A program made the translations under genes and the position numbers. Positions 5,994 to 56,612 of a stretch of 64,000 bases of DNA are shown here, one piece after another. This DNA is from an uncultured beta proteobacterium. Its GTDB lineage: Bacteria; Pseudomonadota; Gammaproteobacteria; Burkholderiales; SG8-41. Location of the stretch: positions 135,959-199,958 of the forward strand of contig CAVZWF010000006.1 of NCBI GenBank assembly GCA_963778865.1, written 5' to 3'. The notes beneath the pieces were generated by a model. The model searched no databases. It was not told the origin of the DNA and was given only the letters and a program-made list of their open reading frames with translations. Every line of letters starts with the position of its first letter. Within the stretch, counting starts at the first letter, position 1.

Positions 5994-6845
5994 CTAGACC
6001 CCGAACAACGCTTCGGCGTTGCGGAAGAACACGTGTTCGAGCGTCTCCTCATCAAACCCGAGCGCGCGCCAGTCGTCGCTGAGCCGCTCGTAGCGGAACA
6101 GCGGATAGTCCGCGCCGAACATGACGCGCCGTTTCAGGCGCCGCGATATTTCGCGCTTCAGCGAGTCGCCGAGGTATTTCGGCGACCAGCCGTGCATTTC
6201 GGCCCACACGTTGGGCTTGTGCAGCATGACGGCGATCATCTCTTCCTGCCACGGCCACGCCGGCCGGCCCGCGATGATCTGCAGGTCCGGATAATCGATC
6301 GCGAGTTCGTCAATGTAGCGCGGATGGCACAGCTCGAGCTTCACTCCCTTGCCGCCGGGAATGCCGGCGCCGGTTCCGGTATAGCCGACGAGAACGAGCA
6401 CCGGCCGCTGCGCCGCGACGGCGACCTCGAAAAACGGACGGTAGATCGCATCGCTCGCCGGATACCCCATTCCCGCGGCGGACACGCACAAGCCGACGAA
6501 GCCGGCGCTCGCGTCAATACAGCGCGCGAATTCCGCGGCACCCGCGCTGCCCGCGCGCGGATCGATCTGCAGCCAGTTGCCGAAAATCACGTCGGGAAAA
6601 CGGCGCTGCGTTTCGAACGCGTAATCGTGGTATTCGCGCACTTTGTCGAGCGGCATGCTCTTGGTGAAGCCGAAATCGAGTATCACGCGGGCGTTATGCC
6701 GGCGGAAGTACGCGGCCATTTCTTCTTCGGTATCGTAACGCGGCGTCGAGCGCCACGTCTTGACCTGTTGCGCGAGTTCCTCCTCGGTCTGCAGAACGTA
6801 ACCGCGTTGGGTGCCCCAGTGCGAATGCAGATCGAACAGTTTCAA
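5994..6845 (-). CDS. amidohydrolase-2 family metal-dependent hydrolase/decarboxylase
   Basis: Intact 283-aa ORF with a TTG start overlapping the upstream Bug stop (TTGA). N-terminal DLHSH metal motif and C-terminal FGADYP..FFRNAEALFG. Confidence 0.8.
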   Translation of the reverse strand: MKLFDLHSHWGTQRGYVLQTEEELAQQVKTWRSTPRYDTEEEMAAYFRRHNARVILDFGFTKSMPLDKVREYHDYAFETQRRFPDVIFGNWLQIDPRAGSAGAAEFARCIDASAGFVGLCVSAAGMGYPASDAIYRPFFEVAVAAQRPVLVLVGYTGTGAGIPGGKGVKLELCHPRYIDELAIDYPDLQIIAGRPAWPWQEEMIAVMLHKPNVWAEMHGWSPKYLGDSLKREISRRLKRRVMFGADYPLFRYERLSDDWRALGFDEETLEHVFFRNAEALFGV

Positions 6846-7804
6846 TTCGCGCTCATGCCGGTGGACTTGATGATCTGCCGCCAGCGCCTGATCTCGGCGC
6901 GCACGAAGGCATCGGCCTGCGCGGGCGTGCCGCCGGCGAATTCAACGCCCTGGCTCGCCATGCGCGCGCGTAATTCCGGATCGCCCATCGCCTTGTTGAT
7001 CTCCGTATTGAGTTTCTGCACGATCTCGCGCGGCGTCGCGGCGGGTGCCAGCACGATATACCACGCGCTGATGTCGAAATCTTTGAGGCCCGCCTCTATC
7101 ATGGTCGACAGTTCGGGCGCCAGCGGCGAGCGTTTGGCGCTGGTCACCGCCAGCGCCTGCAGCTTGCCGGCCTTCACGTGCGGCAGCGCCGTGGTGATCG
7201 TATCGAACATGATGCTCACCTGCCCGCCCAGCACGTCATTCAACGCCGGCGCATTGCCCTTGTACGGCACGTGCACGATGTCGATGCCCGCCACGTGCTT
7301 CAACAGTTCGCCCGAGAGATGCGCGCCCGCGCCGGCACCGCCGGACGCAAACTGGACCTCGCCCGGCCGCGCCTTCGCCAGCGCGATGAGTTCCTTGACC
7401 GAATGCGCGCGAAACGAGGGATGAGTAACCAGAATCAACGGGATATAGCCTACGAACACGACCGCCGCGAAATCCTTCTCCGTGTCGTAGGGCAGCTTGG
7501 GGCTGAAGATCGGGTTCGTCGCGTGCGCCGAATAGCCCATCAGGATCGTGTAGCCGTCGGGCGGTGCCTTCGCCACGAACTCGGTGCCGATCGCGGCACT
7601 CGCCCCCGGCTTGTTGTCGGGGATCACGGCGACCCCCATGCTCTCGGCAATTTTCTGCCCGATCACGCGGGTGAGGATATCGACGCCGCCGCCCGCCGGA
7701 ACCGGCACGACGAACCGGATCGGCTTCGCCGGATACGCCTGGGCCGCGGCCCATGCCGCCGGCAGCGCCAATGCGAGGCCGGTGGCGAAACACAGTGACT
7801 TCAT
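6842..7804 (-). CDS. Bug/TctC-family solute receptor
   Basis: Start at MKSLCFATGLALALPAAWAAAQAYPAKPIRFVVPVPAGGG (7804). Intact, and 4-nt overlap with the downstream amidohydrolase suggests an operon with 5994-6845 and 4578-5981. Confidence 0.85.
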   Translation of the reverse strand: MKSLCFATGLALALPAAWAAAQAYPAKPIRFVVPVPAGGGVDILTRVIGQKIAESMGVAVIPDNKPGASAAIGTEFVAKAPPDGYTILMGYSAHATNPIFSPKLPYDTEKDFAAVVFVGYIPLILVTHPSFRAHSVKELIALAKARPGEVQFASGGAGAGAHLSGELLKHVAGIDIVHVPYKGNAPALNDVLGGQVSIMFDTITTALPHVKAGKLQALAVTSAKRSPLAPELSTMIEAGLKDFDISAWYIVLAPAATPREIVQKLNTEINKAMGDPELRARMASQGVEFAGGTPAQADAFVRAEIRRWRQIIKSTGMSAN

Positions 7805-8088
7805 GAACGGTACTCCTCTGGAAATTCGGCCGCACGGGCCATTCGCTGTCTCGCCGCGCCGCGTATGCCCGACGCCGGATCGGGTATTGCGTGATGATTG
7901 CCGTCGGATGCCCGAAATTATCATTCAATGCGCGCACCGCGTCAAAACCGCCGCGCCGGAATTAGGGAACGGAAACGAGAACGCGCCGCGTGTTACCATA
8001 TTTTTTTTCGGCGACATACTCGCCGCGGCGCCTGGCGGGCGCGATGTACGGCCGCCACGCCTAAGCAGCGAAACAAGGAGGATAAGCG

Positions 8089-9042
8089 ATGAACGTGAGA
8101 ATTCTGTTGTCCGCACTTCTGTGCGCGCTGGGCGCGCCCGCTGGCGCCGGCAATTATCCCGACAAGCCGATCCGCGTGCTCGTGCCGTTCGCGGCGGGCA
8201 CCGGCACCGATATCCTGGCGCGCATCGTGACCGAGGAGTTGCGCACCACGCTGGGCGCGAGTTTCGTGATCGACAACCGGGCCGGCGCCTCGGGCCAGAT
8301 CGCCGCCGAGCTCGCGGCGAAAGCCACGCCCGACGGCTACACGCTGTTCCTCTCCACCAATACGCCGCACTCGGCGAACCCGTTCCTCTTCAAAAAGCTC
8401 TCCTACGATCCGGTCAAGGACTTCGCCGCGGTGTCGCGCATGATTTACTACGTGTTCATCCTGGTGGTAAACCCGAACTCGGGCATCAAGACCGTTCCCG
8501 AGTTGATCGCCTACGTCAAAGCGAACCCCGGCAAGATTTCCTACGCGTTCGGCAACAGCACGGGCCAGGTCAACGGGGCTTACTTCGTGAGTGCCGCCAA
8601 GCTGGATGCACTCCCGGTTCCTTACAAGAGCACGCCACCCGCGATGACAGACCTGATCGCCGGGCAGGTCCAGTTCATGTTCGTCGACGCGGCGTCGAGC
8701 CAGGGACATGTCAAATCGGGCCGGCTGCGCGCCATCGCGCTCATGTCGGATACCCGGTCCACCGCGCTGCCCGAACTGCCGGCTGTCGGCGAAACGGTTC
8801 CGGGGTTCGACACGGTGCCATGGGCCGGCATGTTCGTTCCCGCAGGAACGCCGAAAGCCGTCATCACCCGGCTGAACCAGGAAATCGTCAAGGCGATCAA
8901 CAAGCCGGCGATCAATCAGAAACTGGCGGATGCGGGCCTGCAGCCGGGACCGAGCAGCCCGGCCGAGCTCGACCGGTTCGTCAGGGAACAGCTCGCGGCG
9001 TGGGGCAAGAAAATCAAGGACGCCGGCATACAGCCGGAATAA
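8089..9042 (+). CDS. Bug/TctC-family solute receptor
   Basis: Intact 317-aa ORF, AAGGAGG RBS upstream. MNVRILLSALLCALGAPAGAGNYPDKPIRVLVPFAAGTGTD..DNRAGASG. Confidence 0.9.
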   Translation: MNVRILLSALLCALGAPAGAGNYPDKPIRVLVPFAAGTGTDILARIVTEELRTTLGASFVIDNRAGASGQIAAELAAKATPDGYTLFLSTNTPHSANPFLFKKLSYDPVKDFAAVSRMIYYVFILVVNPNSGIKTVPELIAYVKANPGKISYAFGNSTGQVNGAYFVSAAKLDALPVPYKSTPPAMTDLIAGQVQFMFVDAASSQGHVKSGRLRAIALMSDTRSTALPELPAVGETVPGFDTVPWAGMFVPAGTPKAVITRLNQEIVKAINKPAINQKLADAGLQPGPSSPAELDRFVREQLAAWGKKIKDAGIQPE

Positions 9043-51456: not shown

Positions 51457-52352
51457 ATGCAATTGAAAATCGGAATTGTCGGCATCGGCAAGATGGGTTC
51501 CGCGATCGCGGCGCGGCTCGCGGGCCTCGGCCATGAAGTGACCGTCTGGAACCGCACCGCGGCCAAGGCGCAGGCGCTCGCGCAGGCCGGCGCCAAAGTC
51601 GCCGCCACGCCGCGCGAACTCGCGAGCGGCGCGGAAATCATCATCAGCATATTGACGAACGCCGCGGCGATCGACGCCGCGTACGACGGCAAGGACGGAC
51701 TGCTCGCGGGCGATATCAAGGGCAAATTGTTCATCGAAATGAGCACGGTGCGGCCCGTCACCGAAAAAGCGCTGGCCGCCAAAATCGCCGCGAAAAACGC
51801 CGCCCTGATCGACTGCCCGGTCGGCGGCACGGTGGGACCTGCGCGCGACGGCAAATTGTTCGGCTTCGTCGGCGGCGACGCCGGCGGACGTCGCGCGCGC
51901 GAAACCGCTGCTCGACCAGATGTGCCGCCGCGTCGAACACGTCGGCCCCGTGGGTGCCGGCGCCAGCATGAAACTCGCGATCAACCTGCCGCTGCTCGTC
52001 TACTGGCAGGCGCTGGGCGAAGCGCTGCTCCTGTGCAAGCCGCTGGGCCTCGATCCGGCGCGCGTGATGGACATCCTCGCCGACACGTCCGGCGCGCCCA
52101 GCGTGCTGAAGGTGCGCGGGCCCGTGATCGCCGCCGCGCTTAGCGGCAAGGACACCGGCACGATCACGTTCGACATCGATTCGCTGCGCAAGGACCTGCA
52201 AACGATGATCGAGGAAGCGCAATCGCTCGGCGGCACGCTGCCGGTCACCGCAAGCGCGCTCGCAATGCTTCGACGAAGCCTCGCGCGCGGGGCTCGGCAA
52301 AGGCGATGCGACGCTGCTGCCGGTGCGCTGGGCGAAGTCGGCCAAGCACTGA
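51457..52352 (+). pseudogene. NAD(P)-dependent 3-hydroxyisobutyrate / 6-phosphogluconate dehydrogenase-like oxidoreductase, at least 2 frameshifts
   Basis: MQLKIGIVGIGKMGSAIAARLAGLGHEVTVWNRT (Rossmann fold). 51920..52369 gives ..GAGASMKLAINLPL... The last frame ..QCFDEASRAGLGKGDATLLPVRWAKSAKH* ends at TGA 52350-52352. Confidence 0.75.
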
Positions 52353-52387
52353 TGCTTGTTTTGTTTTAACACCAGAGAGGAGACATC

Positions 52388-53032
52388 ATGATTTACGAAG
52401 TGAGAACGTACGATTTGAAGCCGAGTTCACTGCCCGAAGTCGAAAAGCGGTTCGGCGAAGCCTACGAGCACCGCAAAAAACATTCGCCGCTCGTTCGCGT
52501 TCTGGCACACCGAGATCGGCCCGCTGAACCAGATCATCCACGTGTGGGGCTACAAGGACCTCGCGGAACGCACGCGCATCCGCGCCGAAGCGGTGAAAGA
52601 CGGCACCTGGCCGCCGAAGACCGCGGAGTTCATCGTCAACATGCGCTCGGAAATCATGATTCCGTTTTCGTTTTCGCCGGAACGTGAAGCCCGGCAAGAT
52701 GGGGCCCTACTACGAAATGCGCATTTATACGCTGGCCAACGGCGCGCAATTTCCCAAGCTGCAGGCGCTGTGGGAAAAAGGCCTGCCGGAGCGCGCCAAG
52801 ATCAGCCCGCTGTGCGCGGCGTGGCATTCCGAACTCGGCGTGCTCAACCAGTTCATCCACATCTGGCCGTACAAGTCGGTCGACGAGCGCAATGCGACGC
52901 GCGACAAGGCGAAAGCCACCGGCATGTGGCCGCCGTCGGCTGCTCGCCAAGAAGACCGGCCTGCCCGGCTACGAAATCATCAAGCAGGAAAACAAGATCC
53001 TGATGCCGTCGGCGTTTTCGCCCCTCCAGTAA
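52388..53032 (+). pseudogene. tandem NIPSNAP-domain protein, 3 frameshifts (net in frame)
   Basis: Repeat 1 is MIYEVRTYDLKP...EIGPLNQIIHVWGYKDLAERTRIRAEA. Repeat 2 is YYEMRIYTLANG...ELGVLNQFIHIWPYKSVDERNATRDKA. The pieces are 52388.., 52542.. and 52684.., and the end returns to the first frame (..ILMPSAFSPLQ*, TAA 53030-53032). Confidence 0.7.
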
Positions 53033-53075
53033 ACGCGCAGCGCTATCTTCATCCTCCCCTTCCAGTCTTAGCACC

Positions 53076-53182
53076 CATTTCGCGAGTGCGAAATGCTCAA
53101 CGCGTCCTTCCCCTGTGAAGGGGGAAGGATTGAGGATGGGGGCAAGGGAGGACCGAGGTGGGGATGGGTACTCACCTCGGTC
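53076..53182. repeat. cluster of three consecutive hairpins (compound REP-like element) at the boundary of a low-GC islet
   Basis: CATTTCGC/GCGAAATG (53076-53095), TCCTTCCCC/GGGGAAGGA (53105-53129) and GACCGAGGTG/CACCTCGGTC (53151-53182). Confidence 0.55.
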
Positions 53183-53309
53183 CCCATAGTTTCCGCATCG
53201 GAACTTACTTAGCCCTACGAGACATTGAGAATTTCGGTAGAATTCACCTGTCGAAGCTTGTATCAGTCCGATTGTGACACTGGCCTTGGGCAAGACAGCA
53301 GGGGGCAAG

Positions 53310-53864
53310 ATGTTTAACGAGCGCAGAGTAGCTCAAATGGCGGCGTACATTCTCGACGGCGCCAAAGGCCGCATGAAGTATCTGAGGCTGATGAAGCTTC
53401 TCTATCTCGCGGATCGAGAATCAATGAAGCGTAACGGGCATCCAATTTCGGGTGATCGTTATGTTTCCATGGAGCACGGCCCCGTACTTTCTCACACGCT
53501 GAACCTCATCAATGGCGCAGTCAAGTTTCAGGAGCATGGCTGGGACTACTGGATCGCCGATAAGGCTGATTATGCGATATCACTTAAACGCAAAGTATCG
53601 CGTGAGGCGCTCGACGAGTTGAGCGATGCCGATATCGATGTGCTTGATGACGTTCTTGCTAAATTCGGCAAGACAGATCAATGGAAGTTGGTCGACTACA
53701 CGCATCGCTACTGCCGCGAGTGGAAGGACCCAAAGGGTTCCTCGGTTGCAATCGAATACGAAACCATATTCATAGCGCTCGGACGCAAGCCTGCTGAAGC
53801 AAGGAAAATGGCTGCGCGCGTCGAGCATCAACGAGGCATCGACAGAGTTTTTGCCGGTTTGTGA
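53310..53864 (+). CDS. DUF4065 / Panacea-domain protein (PanA / SocA-like antitoxin family)
   Basis: ATG 53310. MFNERRVAQMAAYILDGAKGRMKYLRLMKLLYLADRESMKRNGHPISGDRYVSMEHGPVLSHT is the characteristic DUF4065 N-terminal pattern. Low GC, intact, with a 4-nt GTGA overlap onto the next ORF. Confidence 0.8.
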   Translation: MFNERRVAQMAAYILDGAKGRMKYLRLMKLLYLADRESMKRNGHPISGDRYVSMEHGPVLSHTLNLINGAVKFQEHGWDYWIADKADYAISLKRKVSREALDELSDADIDVLDDVLAKFGKTDQWKLVDYTHRYCREWKDPKGSSVAIEYETIFIALGRKPAEARKMAARVEHQRGIDRVFAGL

Positions 53865-54295
53865 AGCTGTTCCTGCCGTTCCGGAGGGCGACACTGCTCG
53901 TTCCGTCAGGCCCGGCACACGACCCCGACCAGAAGCATCTTTTCATCGTTCTCAACGACCCCGCCGCAGTACTCGACTATGACGAGAAGCATTCCCTGCT
54001 CGTCGGCGTCACAACTATTCATACCGGAATCCCCCACGATCCAGCATGCGAGCTTCACGCGGGCGATCACCCCTTTATTCGACACAAAAGCTATGCAGAT
54101 TACGCCCGCGCGCGTATAGAACCATCACGAAAAATAATTGACGGCGTAAAGAAGGGAATTTTTTCCGCCCAGCCGTTGCTTGACGAAAAACTGTTCGCGC
54201 ATGTCTGCCGTGGTATTGCGCAATCCCGTTTCGTTGCGCTGAAGGTTCGGTCGTTCTACGAGGCAGTCCAAAAAGCGAAGGCGGACGAGAGTTAG
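53861..54295 (+). CDS. hypothetical 144-aa protein, candidate toxin partner of the Panacea-domain protein
   Basis: GTG 53861 overlaps the upstream stop. Intact, low GC. The pattern RRATLLVPSGP..KHLFIVLNDP..LLVGVTTIH..HPFIRHKSYADYARARI is loosely MazF/PemK-like (my impression only). Confidence 0.5.
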   Translation: MKLFLPFRRATLLVPSGPAHDPDQKHLFIVLNDPAAVLDYDEKHSLLVGVTTIHTGIPHDPACELHAGDHPFIRHKSYADYARARIEPSRKIIDGVKKGIFSAQPLLDEKLFAHVCRGIAQSRFVALKVRSFYEAVQKAKADES

Positions 54296-54461
54296 CGGGT
54301 CTTCGGCGCGCAGTTTAAGGAAATCACGGCAAGAACAATCCATTCCCGGGCCGTCGACAATCCGCATACGAAATTTCACGTCGCGGTCGGGGTCACGCAA
54401 CTGGTCAATCATAGCTTGAGCAAAGGCATTCATATTGTGGCGGAACTAGTGTGCCTACCCG

Positions 54462-54791
54462 TTACTTCGCATCAAGACCCCAAAAAATTGCGAGCTTGTT
54501 CATCACGTCCCTGTACCAAAATCCTCTGCCATTCATGTCGGAGCGTGGCGGTCCGCCGGTATGCTTGTATTCCTGCCAGAGGTGATTGAGCGTCTTGTCA
54601 TCTGCAAAGACTTCGCCCGAGTCAACGTCATCCGCTTTGTGTATTGCACGTAAGCGAGTAAGCACCCTACCAATGGTGACTTGAAAGCGGAGTCCTGGCG
54701 CAAGGTAGAGCCCGATAAACAGCAGTGTGAGCGCGGCCAGAAATGCCGCGATGACAAGGACCTGTAGCGGAAGTGTCGCAATGTAAGTCAT
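54462..54791 (-). CDS. hypothetical membrane protein
   Basis: 109-aa ORF with one clear TM helix (LPLQVLVIAAFLAALTLLFIGLYL), low GC. No family recognised. Confidence 0.45.
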   Translation of the reverse strand: MTYIATLPLQVLVIAAFLAALTLLFIGLYLAPGLRFQVTIGRVLTRLRAIHKADDVDSGEVFADDKTLNHLWQEYKHTGGPPRSDMNGRGFWYRDVMNKLAIFWGLDAK

Positions 54792-54976
54792 GGGGCTTCA
54801 GCCAAGAAAACGGTCAAAGGGCTCAAGTTTAAACCACCAGAATCGCCAGAGTCGGCCTCAATCTTCGAACGTTTACACCACGATCCAGAAAGTAAGTTAT
54901 CGCAGTAATGTGGAGCGTTTTTGTGTTAACACGTATATTGGACGTGAGATGTACGAGCTGGGATGACCACTAGCGT

Positions 54977-56612
54977 TTAGCCATCCTCGCCGGGCCTGAA
55001 CTTGGTTTCAGGCTTGATGCCCTTCTTCCGCTGCTTTTCGCTGATGCGGCCGTTCTCCAGATACTGGCCGGTGGCGGCGCGCCTCGCGGCGGCGTCCCAT
55101 TGCGGCAGCCAGTCGCCGAGCGAGTAGCCGAACCACGGCGCCTGCGGGCGCAGCGCGGGCAGCCCCAAGCGCTCCCAGATTTTTTTCGCGCGCTCCATGT
55201 ATTCCTGCGTCGGCAGTGCCAGCGGCGGCATGTCGCCTTTCATCGTCGCGTCCATCAGGAGCGTGGAATCTTCCTCGTGCTCGCTCTCGCGCTTCGGTCC
55301 GTGGCCCTGGCCGCGGTGCGGCAGCGTGCGCACGTCCTCGACCGGGTTCATGCGGTACGCCATCGCCCACAGCAGCGCGTTCGCGTTGTCGGGATCGATG
55401 TCGTCGTTGACCGCGATGCAGATCTTGCCGCAGTCGCCCTTGAAAAACGCGGCGCCTTCGAGCGCGCGCCAGATTTCCGTGCGCGGCGTGCCTTTCTCGA
55501 CCGTGACGAGCGTGACGCGCAACAGGCCCGTCAGCGGCTCGTGCAGCGACACGCGCTTGACGCCGCGGATGCCGAGCGTGCCGCGCAGATGCGCGAGAAA
55601 CAGCGGCTCGTAGGCGACGCGCTTGATCACGCTCGACTCGCTCGGCGCGACCTGGCTGATGTACGACGGAATCACCGGATTCTTGCGATGCGTGATCGCG
55701 GTCACGCGCATCGGCATGTTGTATTCCTCGAGCGCGACGTGGCCGTGCGATTCGCCGAACGGCGCTTCGGGCTCGACGTATTCGGTGTCGATGAAGCCTT
55801 CGATCACGATCTCGGCCTCGGCCGGCACCAGCAGATCGACGGTCTTCGCTTTGACGACATTGATCGGCGCGCCGGCAAGTCCGCCCGCGACGTCGAATTC
55901 ATCGACGTCGATCGGCAGCTTCTGCGGCCCCATGAACGCGACGTACGGCGGGCAGCCGAGCACGATCGCGCACGGCATGGTCTTGTCGCCGCGCTTCTGA
56001 TGCTTCAGGTAATGCTGGTAGCCGCCGGCGCCGCCGACGCGCGTCGCCATGCGCACGACCAGCCGGTCAGGCGCTTTCAGCGCCGCGCGGTACGTGCCCA
56101 TGTTCTGCACGAGGCTCTCGGGATCGCGCGTGATGACGTTGGTCGCGGTCAGCGTCGGCGCGCTGTCGAAGCCCGGTGTCGAAACCGGGATCGGCAGCAT
56201 GTCGAGGCCGTTGCCTTCGCCCTGCAGCGCCGCGCCTTCGATCACCACTTCGTGGCACGCCGCCGCGGTGACTATGCGCGGACGCACCGGATGCGCGAGC
56301 GCGTGGTCCCACTTCGCCTGGATTTCCTCGACCGGCACGCCCATGCCGATGCTGTAGATCGCGCGGTTGGCCGCGATCGCGCCGACCACCACCGGCATCG
56401 CATAGCGGCGGCCGCGCGCGTTGACGATATTCGTGAACAGAAAAGCCTTGCGCTCGGCTTCCTCGATCCCGCCGACGAACTGCCAGCGCACCAGCGCGTG
56501 CAGCTCGGCGTCCTTGTCGATCGGCTCGTCTATCGTCAGCAGCAGCCCGCTGCGCTTTCAGCGCGTCGAGATGCGCGTGCAGATCGGGATAGCCGCGCGA
56601 GGCGTCGGTCAT
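54977..56612 (-). pseudogene. UbiD-family (prenylated-FMN-dependent) decarboxylase, one frameshift about 56545
   Basis: ATG 56612 (MTDASRGYPDLHAHLDALKAQR, track 56067..56612), then the long intact frame 54977..56491 (..LVRWQFVGGIEEAERKAFLFTNIV..GTYR..ESHGHVALEEY..). Confidence 0.85.

Follow-up and report, generated by a model that had tools for sequence, protein, structure and literature searches.

The panA–panT locus and the conservation of its gene pair

This work concerns a candidate toxin–antitoxin (TA) gene pair, here named panA and panT, carried by an uncultured beta proteobacterium (assembly GCA_963778865.1, contig CAVZWF010000006.1). The whole stretch of 64,000 nucleotides that was analysed is referred to as the window, and all positions are given within it. 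The elements of the pair are the following:

53189..53309, + strand: 5' leader of the cassette, conserved in the closest relative (locus L001) and including AGGGGG at 53300–53305.
53310..53864, + strand: panA, a stand-alone Panacea (DUF4065) antitoxin of 184 amino acids (aa), called from PF13274, phrog_1281, and the homologues in related loci.
53861..53864, + strand: GTGA start/stop overlap, read from the sequence, with the same −4 overlap in 34 of 49 related loci.
53861..54295, + strand: panT, a predicted toxin of 144 aa with a MazF/PemK-like beta-barrel core and a C-terminal two-helix extension, called from AlphaFold2, Foldseek, and BLASTP.

Read from the sequence, both genes are intact: panA runs from the ATG at 53310 to the TGA at 53862–53864, and panT from the GTG at 53861 to the TAG at 54293–54295, so that the start codon of panT and the stop codon of panA lie on the same four nucleotides. 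The sequence thus bears out the two intact same-strand open reading frames (ORFs) and the overlap reported in a preliminary description of this DNA. The GTGA overlap, together with the fact that no obvious Shine–Dalgarno sequence was seen by eye upstream of the panT GTG, suggests that the translation of panT is coupled to that of panA. The AGGGGG at 53300–53305, 5' of the panA ATG, is likely the panA ribosome-binding site; moreover, in the 49 related loci the PanA homologues share the MFNER.. start, and the two observations together favour the start at 53310 over an upstream GTG at 53274.

On sequence grounds PanA is unambiguously a Panacea/DUF4065 protein, as had been proposed beforehand: it matches PF13274 (SocA_Panacea) over the whole profile (residues 27–139, profile positions 1–113 of 113) with a score of 94.1 bits (cut-off 25.7) and an E-value of 1.3e-26, and phrog_1281 with an E-value of 1.2e-32. 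It carries no N-terminal accessory domain, and its N-terminus reads MFNERRVAQ, the family consensus being MFNERKVAQ. Its score against the NCBIfam SocA equivalog NF047745 is 22.8 bits, below the threshold of 190. The AlphaFold2 model, obtained from a shallow alignment (mean predicted local distance difference test, pLDDT, of 76), consists of a helical core and, after it, two C-terminal helices (residues 150–156 and 161–183); a Foldseek search with this model returned nothing significant, and PADLOC returned no family for either PanA or PanT at E ≤ 1. Stand-alone Panacea domains are able to neutralise directly, and other PanAs use extra elements, such as C-terminal helices, for this task (PMC10440598); the helices modelled at residues 150–183 are candidates for the neutralising element.

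The survey of the pair scanned one genome per species and yielded 49 loci from other species with a PanT relative. In all 49, tblastn placed a PanA homologue immediately ahead of the toxin and in its orientation, the match stopping where the toxin begins or slightly earlier; the recurrent adjacency to DUF4065 genes envisaged in the preliminary description was accordingly observed throughout. The PanA homologue is full-length in 46 loci and partial in the remaining three, the identical 4-nt overlap occurs in 34, and the gap is of 12 nt or less in 48. Moreover, the identities of PanA and PanT drop in parallel across the loci. In their search for such systems, Kurata et al. (2022, PNAS 119:e2102212119, PMC8832971) considered two same-strand genes no more than 100 nt apart, whose TA-like architecture is conserved in two species or more; the window pair, with its −4 overlap and its pairing in every locus, has this architecture.

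The same gene order was found on plasmids of Endozoicomonas, Acetobacter, Acinetobacter, and Phaeobacter, and in the inspected regions of Klebsiella and Pseudomonas phages and of one E. coli phage; Yersinia and Vibrio phages also gave matches to the toxin. Prophages of 208 of the 5426 complete E. coli genomes (about 4%) carry the pair as well.

Forty-seven loci hold both genes fully on the contig, and in 38 of these both are intact. In six (L015, L037, L038, L041, L043, and L044), a frameshift or truncation affects the toxin while PanA keeps its full length, and in three (L009, L047, and L048) both genes are damaged; an intact toxin next to a damaged PanA was found in 0 of the 47. If disruptions fell according to gene length alone, six out of six in the shorter gene would be expected with a probability of (144/328)^6, i.e., about 0.007, a figure to be read with the caveat that the loci come from different taxa but that their independence is not guaranteed. 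Toxin-only decay in six loci against antitoxin-only decay in none is the pattern that a toxin–antitoxin pair predicts.

Two details of annotation emerged from the same survey. In E. coli O103 RM8385 (L053, 1501–2489), RefSeq starts the PanT homologue internally, giving a protein of 128 aa that begins 29 nt after PanA. The phage Lys8385Vzw (L050, 1932–2920) and the family alignment indicate an upstream start, with a 4-nt overlap with PanA and a product of 139 aa; judged from these sequences, the internal start is probably a mis-annotation in many E. coli genomes. On a Phaeobacter inhibens plasmid (L055, 1501–1869), tblastn matched PanT 3' of an annotated Panacea gene, at a place where no gene is listed; the next gene, which runs in the other direction, encodes an “abortive infection family protein”. 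The unlisted PanT may reflect a gap in an incomplete PLSDB gene table and not a true annotation gap.

The PanT family, its link to cluster T6, and its predicted fold

The search with PanT gave no credible match in Pfam, NCBIfam, or PADLOC, and the first two thus hold no housekeeping family for it, a kind of match that, according to the preliminary description, would have refuted its toxin call; phmmer against the sequences of the PDB retrieved nothing either. The sole family match is phrog_19071 (E = 7e-23), a PHROG of no assigned function. A single-sequence search retrieved 113 relatives, all named “hypothetical”; a profile search through a word index raised their number to 368, and an exhaustive profile search returned 3374 representatives of 50%-identity clusters at E ≤ 1e-3, 1776 of them at E ≤ 1e-10. 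Given the 113 relatives and the 3374 cluster representatives, the 144-aa reading frame is not a chance ORF. Among 149 diverse representatives, the residues conserved in at least 90% are H26, L27, D60, C63, H70, F72, S77, Y81, G118, and S122. One homologue, 44% identical to PanT, is called a “PemK-like protein” in UniRef; nonetheless, as far as profile comparison can tell, the family is outside PF02452 (PemK_toxin) at the sequence level.

The survey of DUF4065 neighbourhoods by Kurata et al. defined 88 toxin clusters. In cluster T6, the antitoxin precedes the toxin, PanA lacks an N-terminal domain, and the genes mostly overlap by −4 or −1. This cluster includes a pair from Pseudomonas moraviensis (PanT WP_083201923.1, PanA WP_083354365.1), whose PanT has no CDD hit and resembles EndoA/PemK/MazF in HHpred; it is toxic, is neutralised by its PanA, was pulled down in complex with it, and in metabolic labelling specifically inhibits protein synthesis and not replication (PMC8832971). 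Dataset S1 of the same paper lists under T6 the Acetobacter orientalis FAN1 pair WP_126621609.1/WP_126621608.1 with a spacing of 14, WP_012553438.1 of G. diazotrophicus, and the pair of O. beijerinckii DSM 7166 with a −4 overlap.

These entries could be connected to the window pair. On plasmid pAOF1 of A. orientalis FAN1 (L057), PanA occupies 1920–2474 and the toxin 2489–2902, with the spacing of 14 given in Dataset S1; by exact look-up the toxin is WP_126621608.1, a member of the 90% cluster that has WP_012553438.1 as its representative. The window PanT is 35% identical to WP_126621608.1 over 125 aa (BLASTP, E = 1e-25), and the window PanA is 36% identical to the A. orientalis FAN1 PanA (E = 7e-38). 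Locus L043 fits the O. beijerinckii DSM 7166 −4 pair of T6, and the window PanA begins with MFNERRVAQ, similar to the MIFSEQKVAQ restored for the P. moraviensis PanA in PMC8832971. The P. moraviensis PanT itself was not found by name among the best 120 of the 368 matches listed for the profile search, nor in the supplements of PMC10440598.

Since PanT is homologous to the listed T6 proteins, namely WP_126621608.1 and the cluster of WP_012553438.1, we assign the window pair to T6 on the strength of these alignments. It adds, then, to a PanAT group already described and backed by experiment and is not a new toxin family, and the preliminary description had gone too far in calling the pair “new” and the partner “unassigned”. 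The claim of novelty is lowered accordingly, because the toxin group was catalogued in 2022 with one member experimentally validated.

Membership of Kurata cluster T1 (“mRNase”) was also considered and discarded: its O. beijerinckii pair is spaced by +12, compared with −4 in L043, and the T1 phage Emek is absent from the tblastn matches.

Alternatively, the 144-aa product could be non-toxic in its host, the two genes forming a conserved module of a phage or mobile element that serves another function and has a Panacea protein as one partner. The T1 “mRNase” proteins of E. coli MOD1 and Salmonella phage Emek, as well as a “MazF” candidate of Flavobacterium xanthum, were non-toxic in E. coli (PMC8832971), and the phrog_19071 to which PanT belongs has no assigned function. 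We consider this scenario quite improbable: decay is toxin-only in six loci and antitoxin-only in none, the genes are tightly coupled by their overlap, and PanT is homologous to T6 members, of which the tested representative is toxic and neutralised.

The AlphaFold2 model of PanT, built on a 37-sequence alignment, has a pLDDT of 93.5 and a predicted template modelling (TM) score of 0.87; it consists of four long strands, one short strand, and three helices, two of them C-terminal. With this model, Foldseek retrieved from the PDB MazF-type toxins in all of the top 50 positions, at E-values from 6.2e-4 to 2e-2, with TM scores of 0.52–0.65 when normalised on target length and 0.42–0.51 on query length; the structures came from E. 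coli, B. subtilis, S. aureus, M. tuberculosis, D. radiodurans, and others. In BFVD, the collection of predicted viral structures, the top matches are labelled “PemK-like protein” and “Endoribonuclease”. According to the model, the fold of PanT is that of a MazF/PemK-type beta-barrel. The combined AlphaFold and Foldseek check foreseen for the 144-aa protein thus led to MazF-type toxins, and the loose likeness to MazF/PemK noticed from the letters alone proved right at the level of the fold, with BFVD in agreement.

The comparison of profiles by hhalign was less conclusive, the family profile giving no significant match to E. coli MazF alone or to a five-sequence alignment of MazF/Kid/ChpBK. In the second of these non-significant comparisons, the family is collinear with MazF over residues 1–124, with His26 at MazF Arg29 and Thr51 at MazF Thr52. 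Arg29 and Thr52 are the catalytic residues of E. coli MazF; that His26 and Thr51 are their counterparts in PanT is, on such an alignment, a hypothesis. Should the catalytic Arg be a His in PanT, as it appears, the chemistry of PanT may differ from that of MazF.

PanT might also be a toxin without being an RNase, acting as a gyrase poison in the manner of CcdB; the family-specific conserved residues D60, C63, and H70 might likewise be the mark of another activity, possibly a metal-dependent one, or of another target. MazF and CcdB share a fold superfamily, and CcdB poisons DNA gyrase. The PanT family does not appear to keep the catalytic Arg of MazF, and the most conserved residues, H26, D60, C63, H70, S77, and Y81, include one (H70) that falls within H66–P71, the segment lying opposite a MazF gap in the low-confidence alignment; moreover, HHpred matched the related cluster T5 to CcdB, among others (Dataset S1, PMC8832971). 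The top 50 PDB matches, however, are all MazF-type RNases and none is CcdB, and the validated T6 member inhibits translation and not replication in metabolic labelling (PMC8832971), so that we give this alternative little credence.

The putative mobile unit, its neighbourhoods, and the flanking DNA

The closest relative of the pair (L001) comes from a betaproteobacterial metagenome-assembled genome (MAG), with 93% identity for PanA and 88% for PanT. The DNA similarity between the two loci is limited to 53189–54281 (86.9% over 1096 nt), which indicates that the portable unit comprises panA, panT, and some 120 nt of leader, beginning directly after the last of three hairpins, described below. 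No recombinase and no convincing flanking direct repeats were found around the cassette, and a search of sequencing runs disclosed no run with the cassette sequence (at most 6% of words matched).

In 300-nt windows, GC content is 0.50–0.56 from about 53000 to 54950, compared with 0.60–0.72 on either flank, and the stretch in which the two ORFs lie has about 52% GC. The low-GC islet of the preliminary description is therefore real as far as base composition is concerned, while its reading as one unit did not hold, since only 53189–54281 is common to L001. Judged from this comparison, the islet is not a single unit, and its remaining ~680 nt (54296–54975) is different material.

Related cassettes adjoin a type III restriction-modification pair, an Mrr endonuclease, a helix-turn-helix (HTH) gene together with a MazE-type antitoxin gene, or methyltransferase and phage-gene fragments. 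In P. putida prophages (L064–L066, genes at 6321–8405), the pair is located directly downstream of an S24-peptidase cI-like repressor gene and divergent from a Cro-like gene, i.e., it sits in the immunity region of a lambdoid prophage. In an E. coli prophage the pair adjoins the integrase. These neighbourhoods, inspected in a handful of contigs, would fit a mobile accessory or defence gene.

Because it recurs next to restriction genes and in the immunity or integrase slots of prophages, the pair is a reasonable phage-defence candidate. The pair could be primarily a phage-defence (abortive infection) module, neither an addiction nor a stress module, in which PanA would sense a phage cue and release or activate the MazF-fold effector; such a scenario extends the one that we prefer (see below) and does not exclude it. 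Relatives of the pair adjoin type III restriction-modification genes, Mrr, methyltransferase fragments, and phage genes. The P. putida prophage pair lies directly downstream of the S24 cI-like repressor, a slot that we take to be the one where lambda carries rexAB. In an E. coli prophage the pair is found beside the integrase, 208 of the 5426 complete genomes of this species carry the pair, a probable ZorA remnant is placed beside the window pair, and a sensory role has been proposed for Panacea (PMC10440598). On the other hand, PADLOC models match neither protein, and many loci lie among ordinary metabolic genes, the favourable neighbourhoods coming from only a handful of contigs. We therefore regard phage defence as the primary role of the pair as possible but tentative.

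Other features of the surrounding DNA are listed here:

53076..53183, + strand: three-hairpin cluster, context outside the shared cassette, called from minimum free energy (MFE) and shuffles.
54125–54433, − strand: 102-aa ORF, partly antisense to panT, with no match in four libraries.
54462..54791, − strand: 109-aa ORF, a putative ZorA N-terminus remnant, called from PADLOC ZorA1.

The three adjacent hairpins lie at the upstream edge of the cassette, downstream of NIPSNAP-type reading frames; they have an MFE of −72.7 kcal/mol (z = −5.5), and 0 of 200 shuffles fold as well. Perfect arms of 11 nt lie at 53150–53160 and 53173–53183, and the middle hairpin is unique in the window, which indicates that it is not a repeated element of the repetitive extragenic palindromic (REP) type here. 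Both boundaries of the islet named in the preliminary description were recovered, the triple-hairpin cluster with the energy just given, and the UbiD stop as the end, at 54977, of a minus-strand ORF of the UbiD family.

Between panT and the UbiD gene, the 109-aa ORF matches PADLOC ZorA1 with an E-value of 1.5e-10 (residues 3–78, profile positions 7–86 of 663) and, weakly, the NCBIfam ZorA1. As it matches the N-terminus of ZorA only, it is probably, on this partial match, the stump of a deleted or decayed Zorya system, an earlier defence system in the islet. The last ~57 codons of the 102-aa ORF are antisense to the 3' end of panT; this reading frame may be spurious, or else the remains of a gene that the cassette interrupted.

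Several of the flanking housekeeping genes are interrupted, either through indel errors of the assembly or as pseudogenes. In 51457–53032 (+), a gene of the 3-hydroxyisobutyrate-dehydrogenase type has its NAD_binding_2 and NAD_binding_11 domains in overlapping ORFs of different frames, and a tandem NIPSNAP gene is spread over at least four frames, each of its two NIPSNAP domains being split between frames. At 56067–56612 (−), the N-terminus of UbiD is apparently in another frame. The ORFs of the cassette are intact and full-length relative to their homologues despite these frameshifted flanks.

Interpretation and comparison with known systems

Taken together, the locus is probably a horizontally mobile type II PanAT cassette of 1.1 kb, in which a Panacea antitoxin is joined to a translationally coupled toxin with a MazF/PemK fold. 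The earlier suggestion that the 144-aa partner is a toxin finds computational support in its adjacency to panA, its predicted fold, and the lack of a match to a housekeeping family; the toxicity of the window copy itself we infer by analogy with the tested T6 member. By the same analogy, free PanT would stop growth by blocking translation, as reported for that member, and, judging from the modelled fold, would most likely cleave RNA as MazF does. PanA would bind PanT directly and hold it inactive, such a complex having been reported for the T6 pair; the loss of PanA, or a trigger (possibly phage infection) acting on it, would then release PanT. We likewise infer that neutralisation takes place through the C-terminal helices of PanA and that the pair has a role in defence.

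A number of results weigh against this interpretation. At the sequence level, PF02452 does not match the window PanT at E ≤ 1, and its search of 149 diverse family members gave two weak matches, with a best E-value of 0.11; the family profile recovered no MazF from the sequences of the PDB, only chance matches to hemocyanin and eIF6. Its hhalign comparison with a five-sequence alignment of MazF/Kid/ChpBK is not significant (E = 0.16), E. coli MazF being the one sequence of the five that was verified against the PDB. The Foldseek E-values are modest and the query-normalised TM scores reach only 0.42–0.51, and the family appears, from the alignment, to have an invariant His26 in place of the catalytic Arg of MazF. 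Furthermore, the tie of the window PanT to the validated P. moraviensis PanT runs via the clustering of Kurata et al., and WP_083201923.1 was not returned by name in a search seeded with a P. subflava homologue; several PanA-adjacent candidates, MazF-like ones included, were non-toxic in E. coli (PMC8832971). As for the DNA, a scan of 52950–55050 for the sigma-70 consensus gave no site, and the frameshifts in the flanking genes are a sign either of an assembly prone to errors or of genome decay.

Two departures from an ordinary PanAT pair may also be depicted. PanT might represent a subgroup with a changed catalytic machinery (His for Arg, D60/C63/H70, and the helical extension that canonical MazF lacks) and another target or chemistry, and it might also be an abortive infection effector of prophages and defence islands that is released when PanA senses a phage; we consider these departures rather unlikely.

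The locus introduces no new principle; pairs of a Panacea antitoxin and a MazF-like toxin were described and validated in 2022 (PMC8832971). Its value lies first in annotation: the first gene can be named a PanA antitoxin and the second, a toxin that public records call “hypothetical” or “phage protein”, a PanT of type T6 with a MazF fold, in a family that is spread over many Proteobacteria, plasmids, and temperate phages. Such a large family has no model in Pfam, NCBIfam, or PADLOC (in the copies searched), and a family model would thus widely improve the annotation of TA and defence systems. Secondly, the change from Arg to His at the presumed catalytic site raises a concrete mechanistic question.

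The closest known system is the PanAT pair of P. moraviensis, with which the window pair shares the antitoxin-then-toxin order, a stand-alone Panacea antitoxin without an N-terminal domain, overlapping or near-overlapping genes, and a toxin without CDD or Pfam matches but with a predicted MazF/PemK-like structure. The differences concern the host, the nearest relatives of the window pair being in betaproteobacterial MAGs, and the sequence, the window PanT being only about 35% identical to the T6 members compared.

With MazF/PemK/Kid/EndoA (PF02452), PanT has in common the predicted fold and an order of secondary-structure elements collinear with that of MazF. In the low-confidence alignment, a Thr or Ser of the PanT family occupies the position of the catalytic Thr52 and an invariant His that of the catalytic Arg29, and the PanT motif H59–F72 (D60, C63, H70, and F72) includes a stretch, H66–P71, opposite a gap in MazF. 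PanT differs from MazF also in about 35 extra C-terminal residues, predicted to form two helices. In mazEF, too, the antitoxin gene precedes that of the toxin; however, the window antitoxin is a Panacea protein and not one of the AbrB or ribbon-helix-helix (RHH) type found in MazE/PemI, and PanA has no recognisable DNA-binding domain.

Finally, SocAB of Caulobacter crescentus, a type VI TA system whose SocA is the founding Panacea protein, has the SocA_Panacea domain in common with PanA. SocA is an adaptor of ClpXP for the degradation of the toxin. The window PanA, however, scores far below the SocA equivalog cut-off, and its partner has the MazF fold and is not SocB; furthermore, compared with the adaptor role of SocA, the PanAT pairs that have been tested form stable complexes (PMC8832971).

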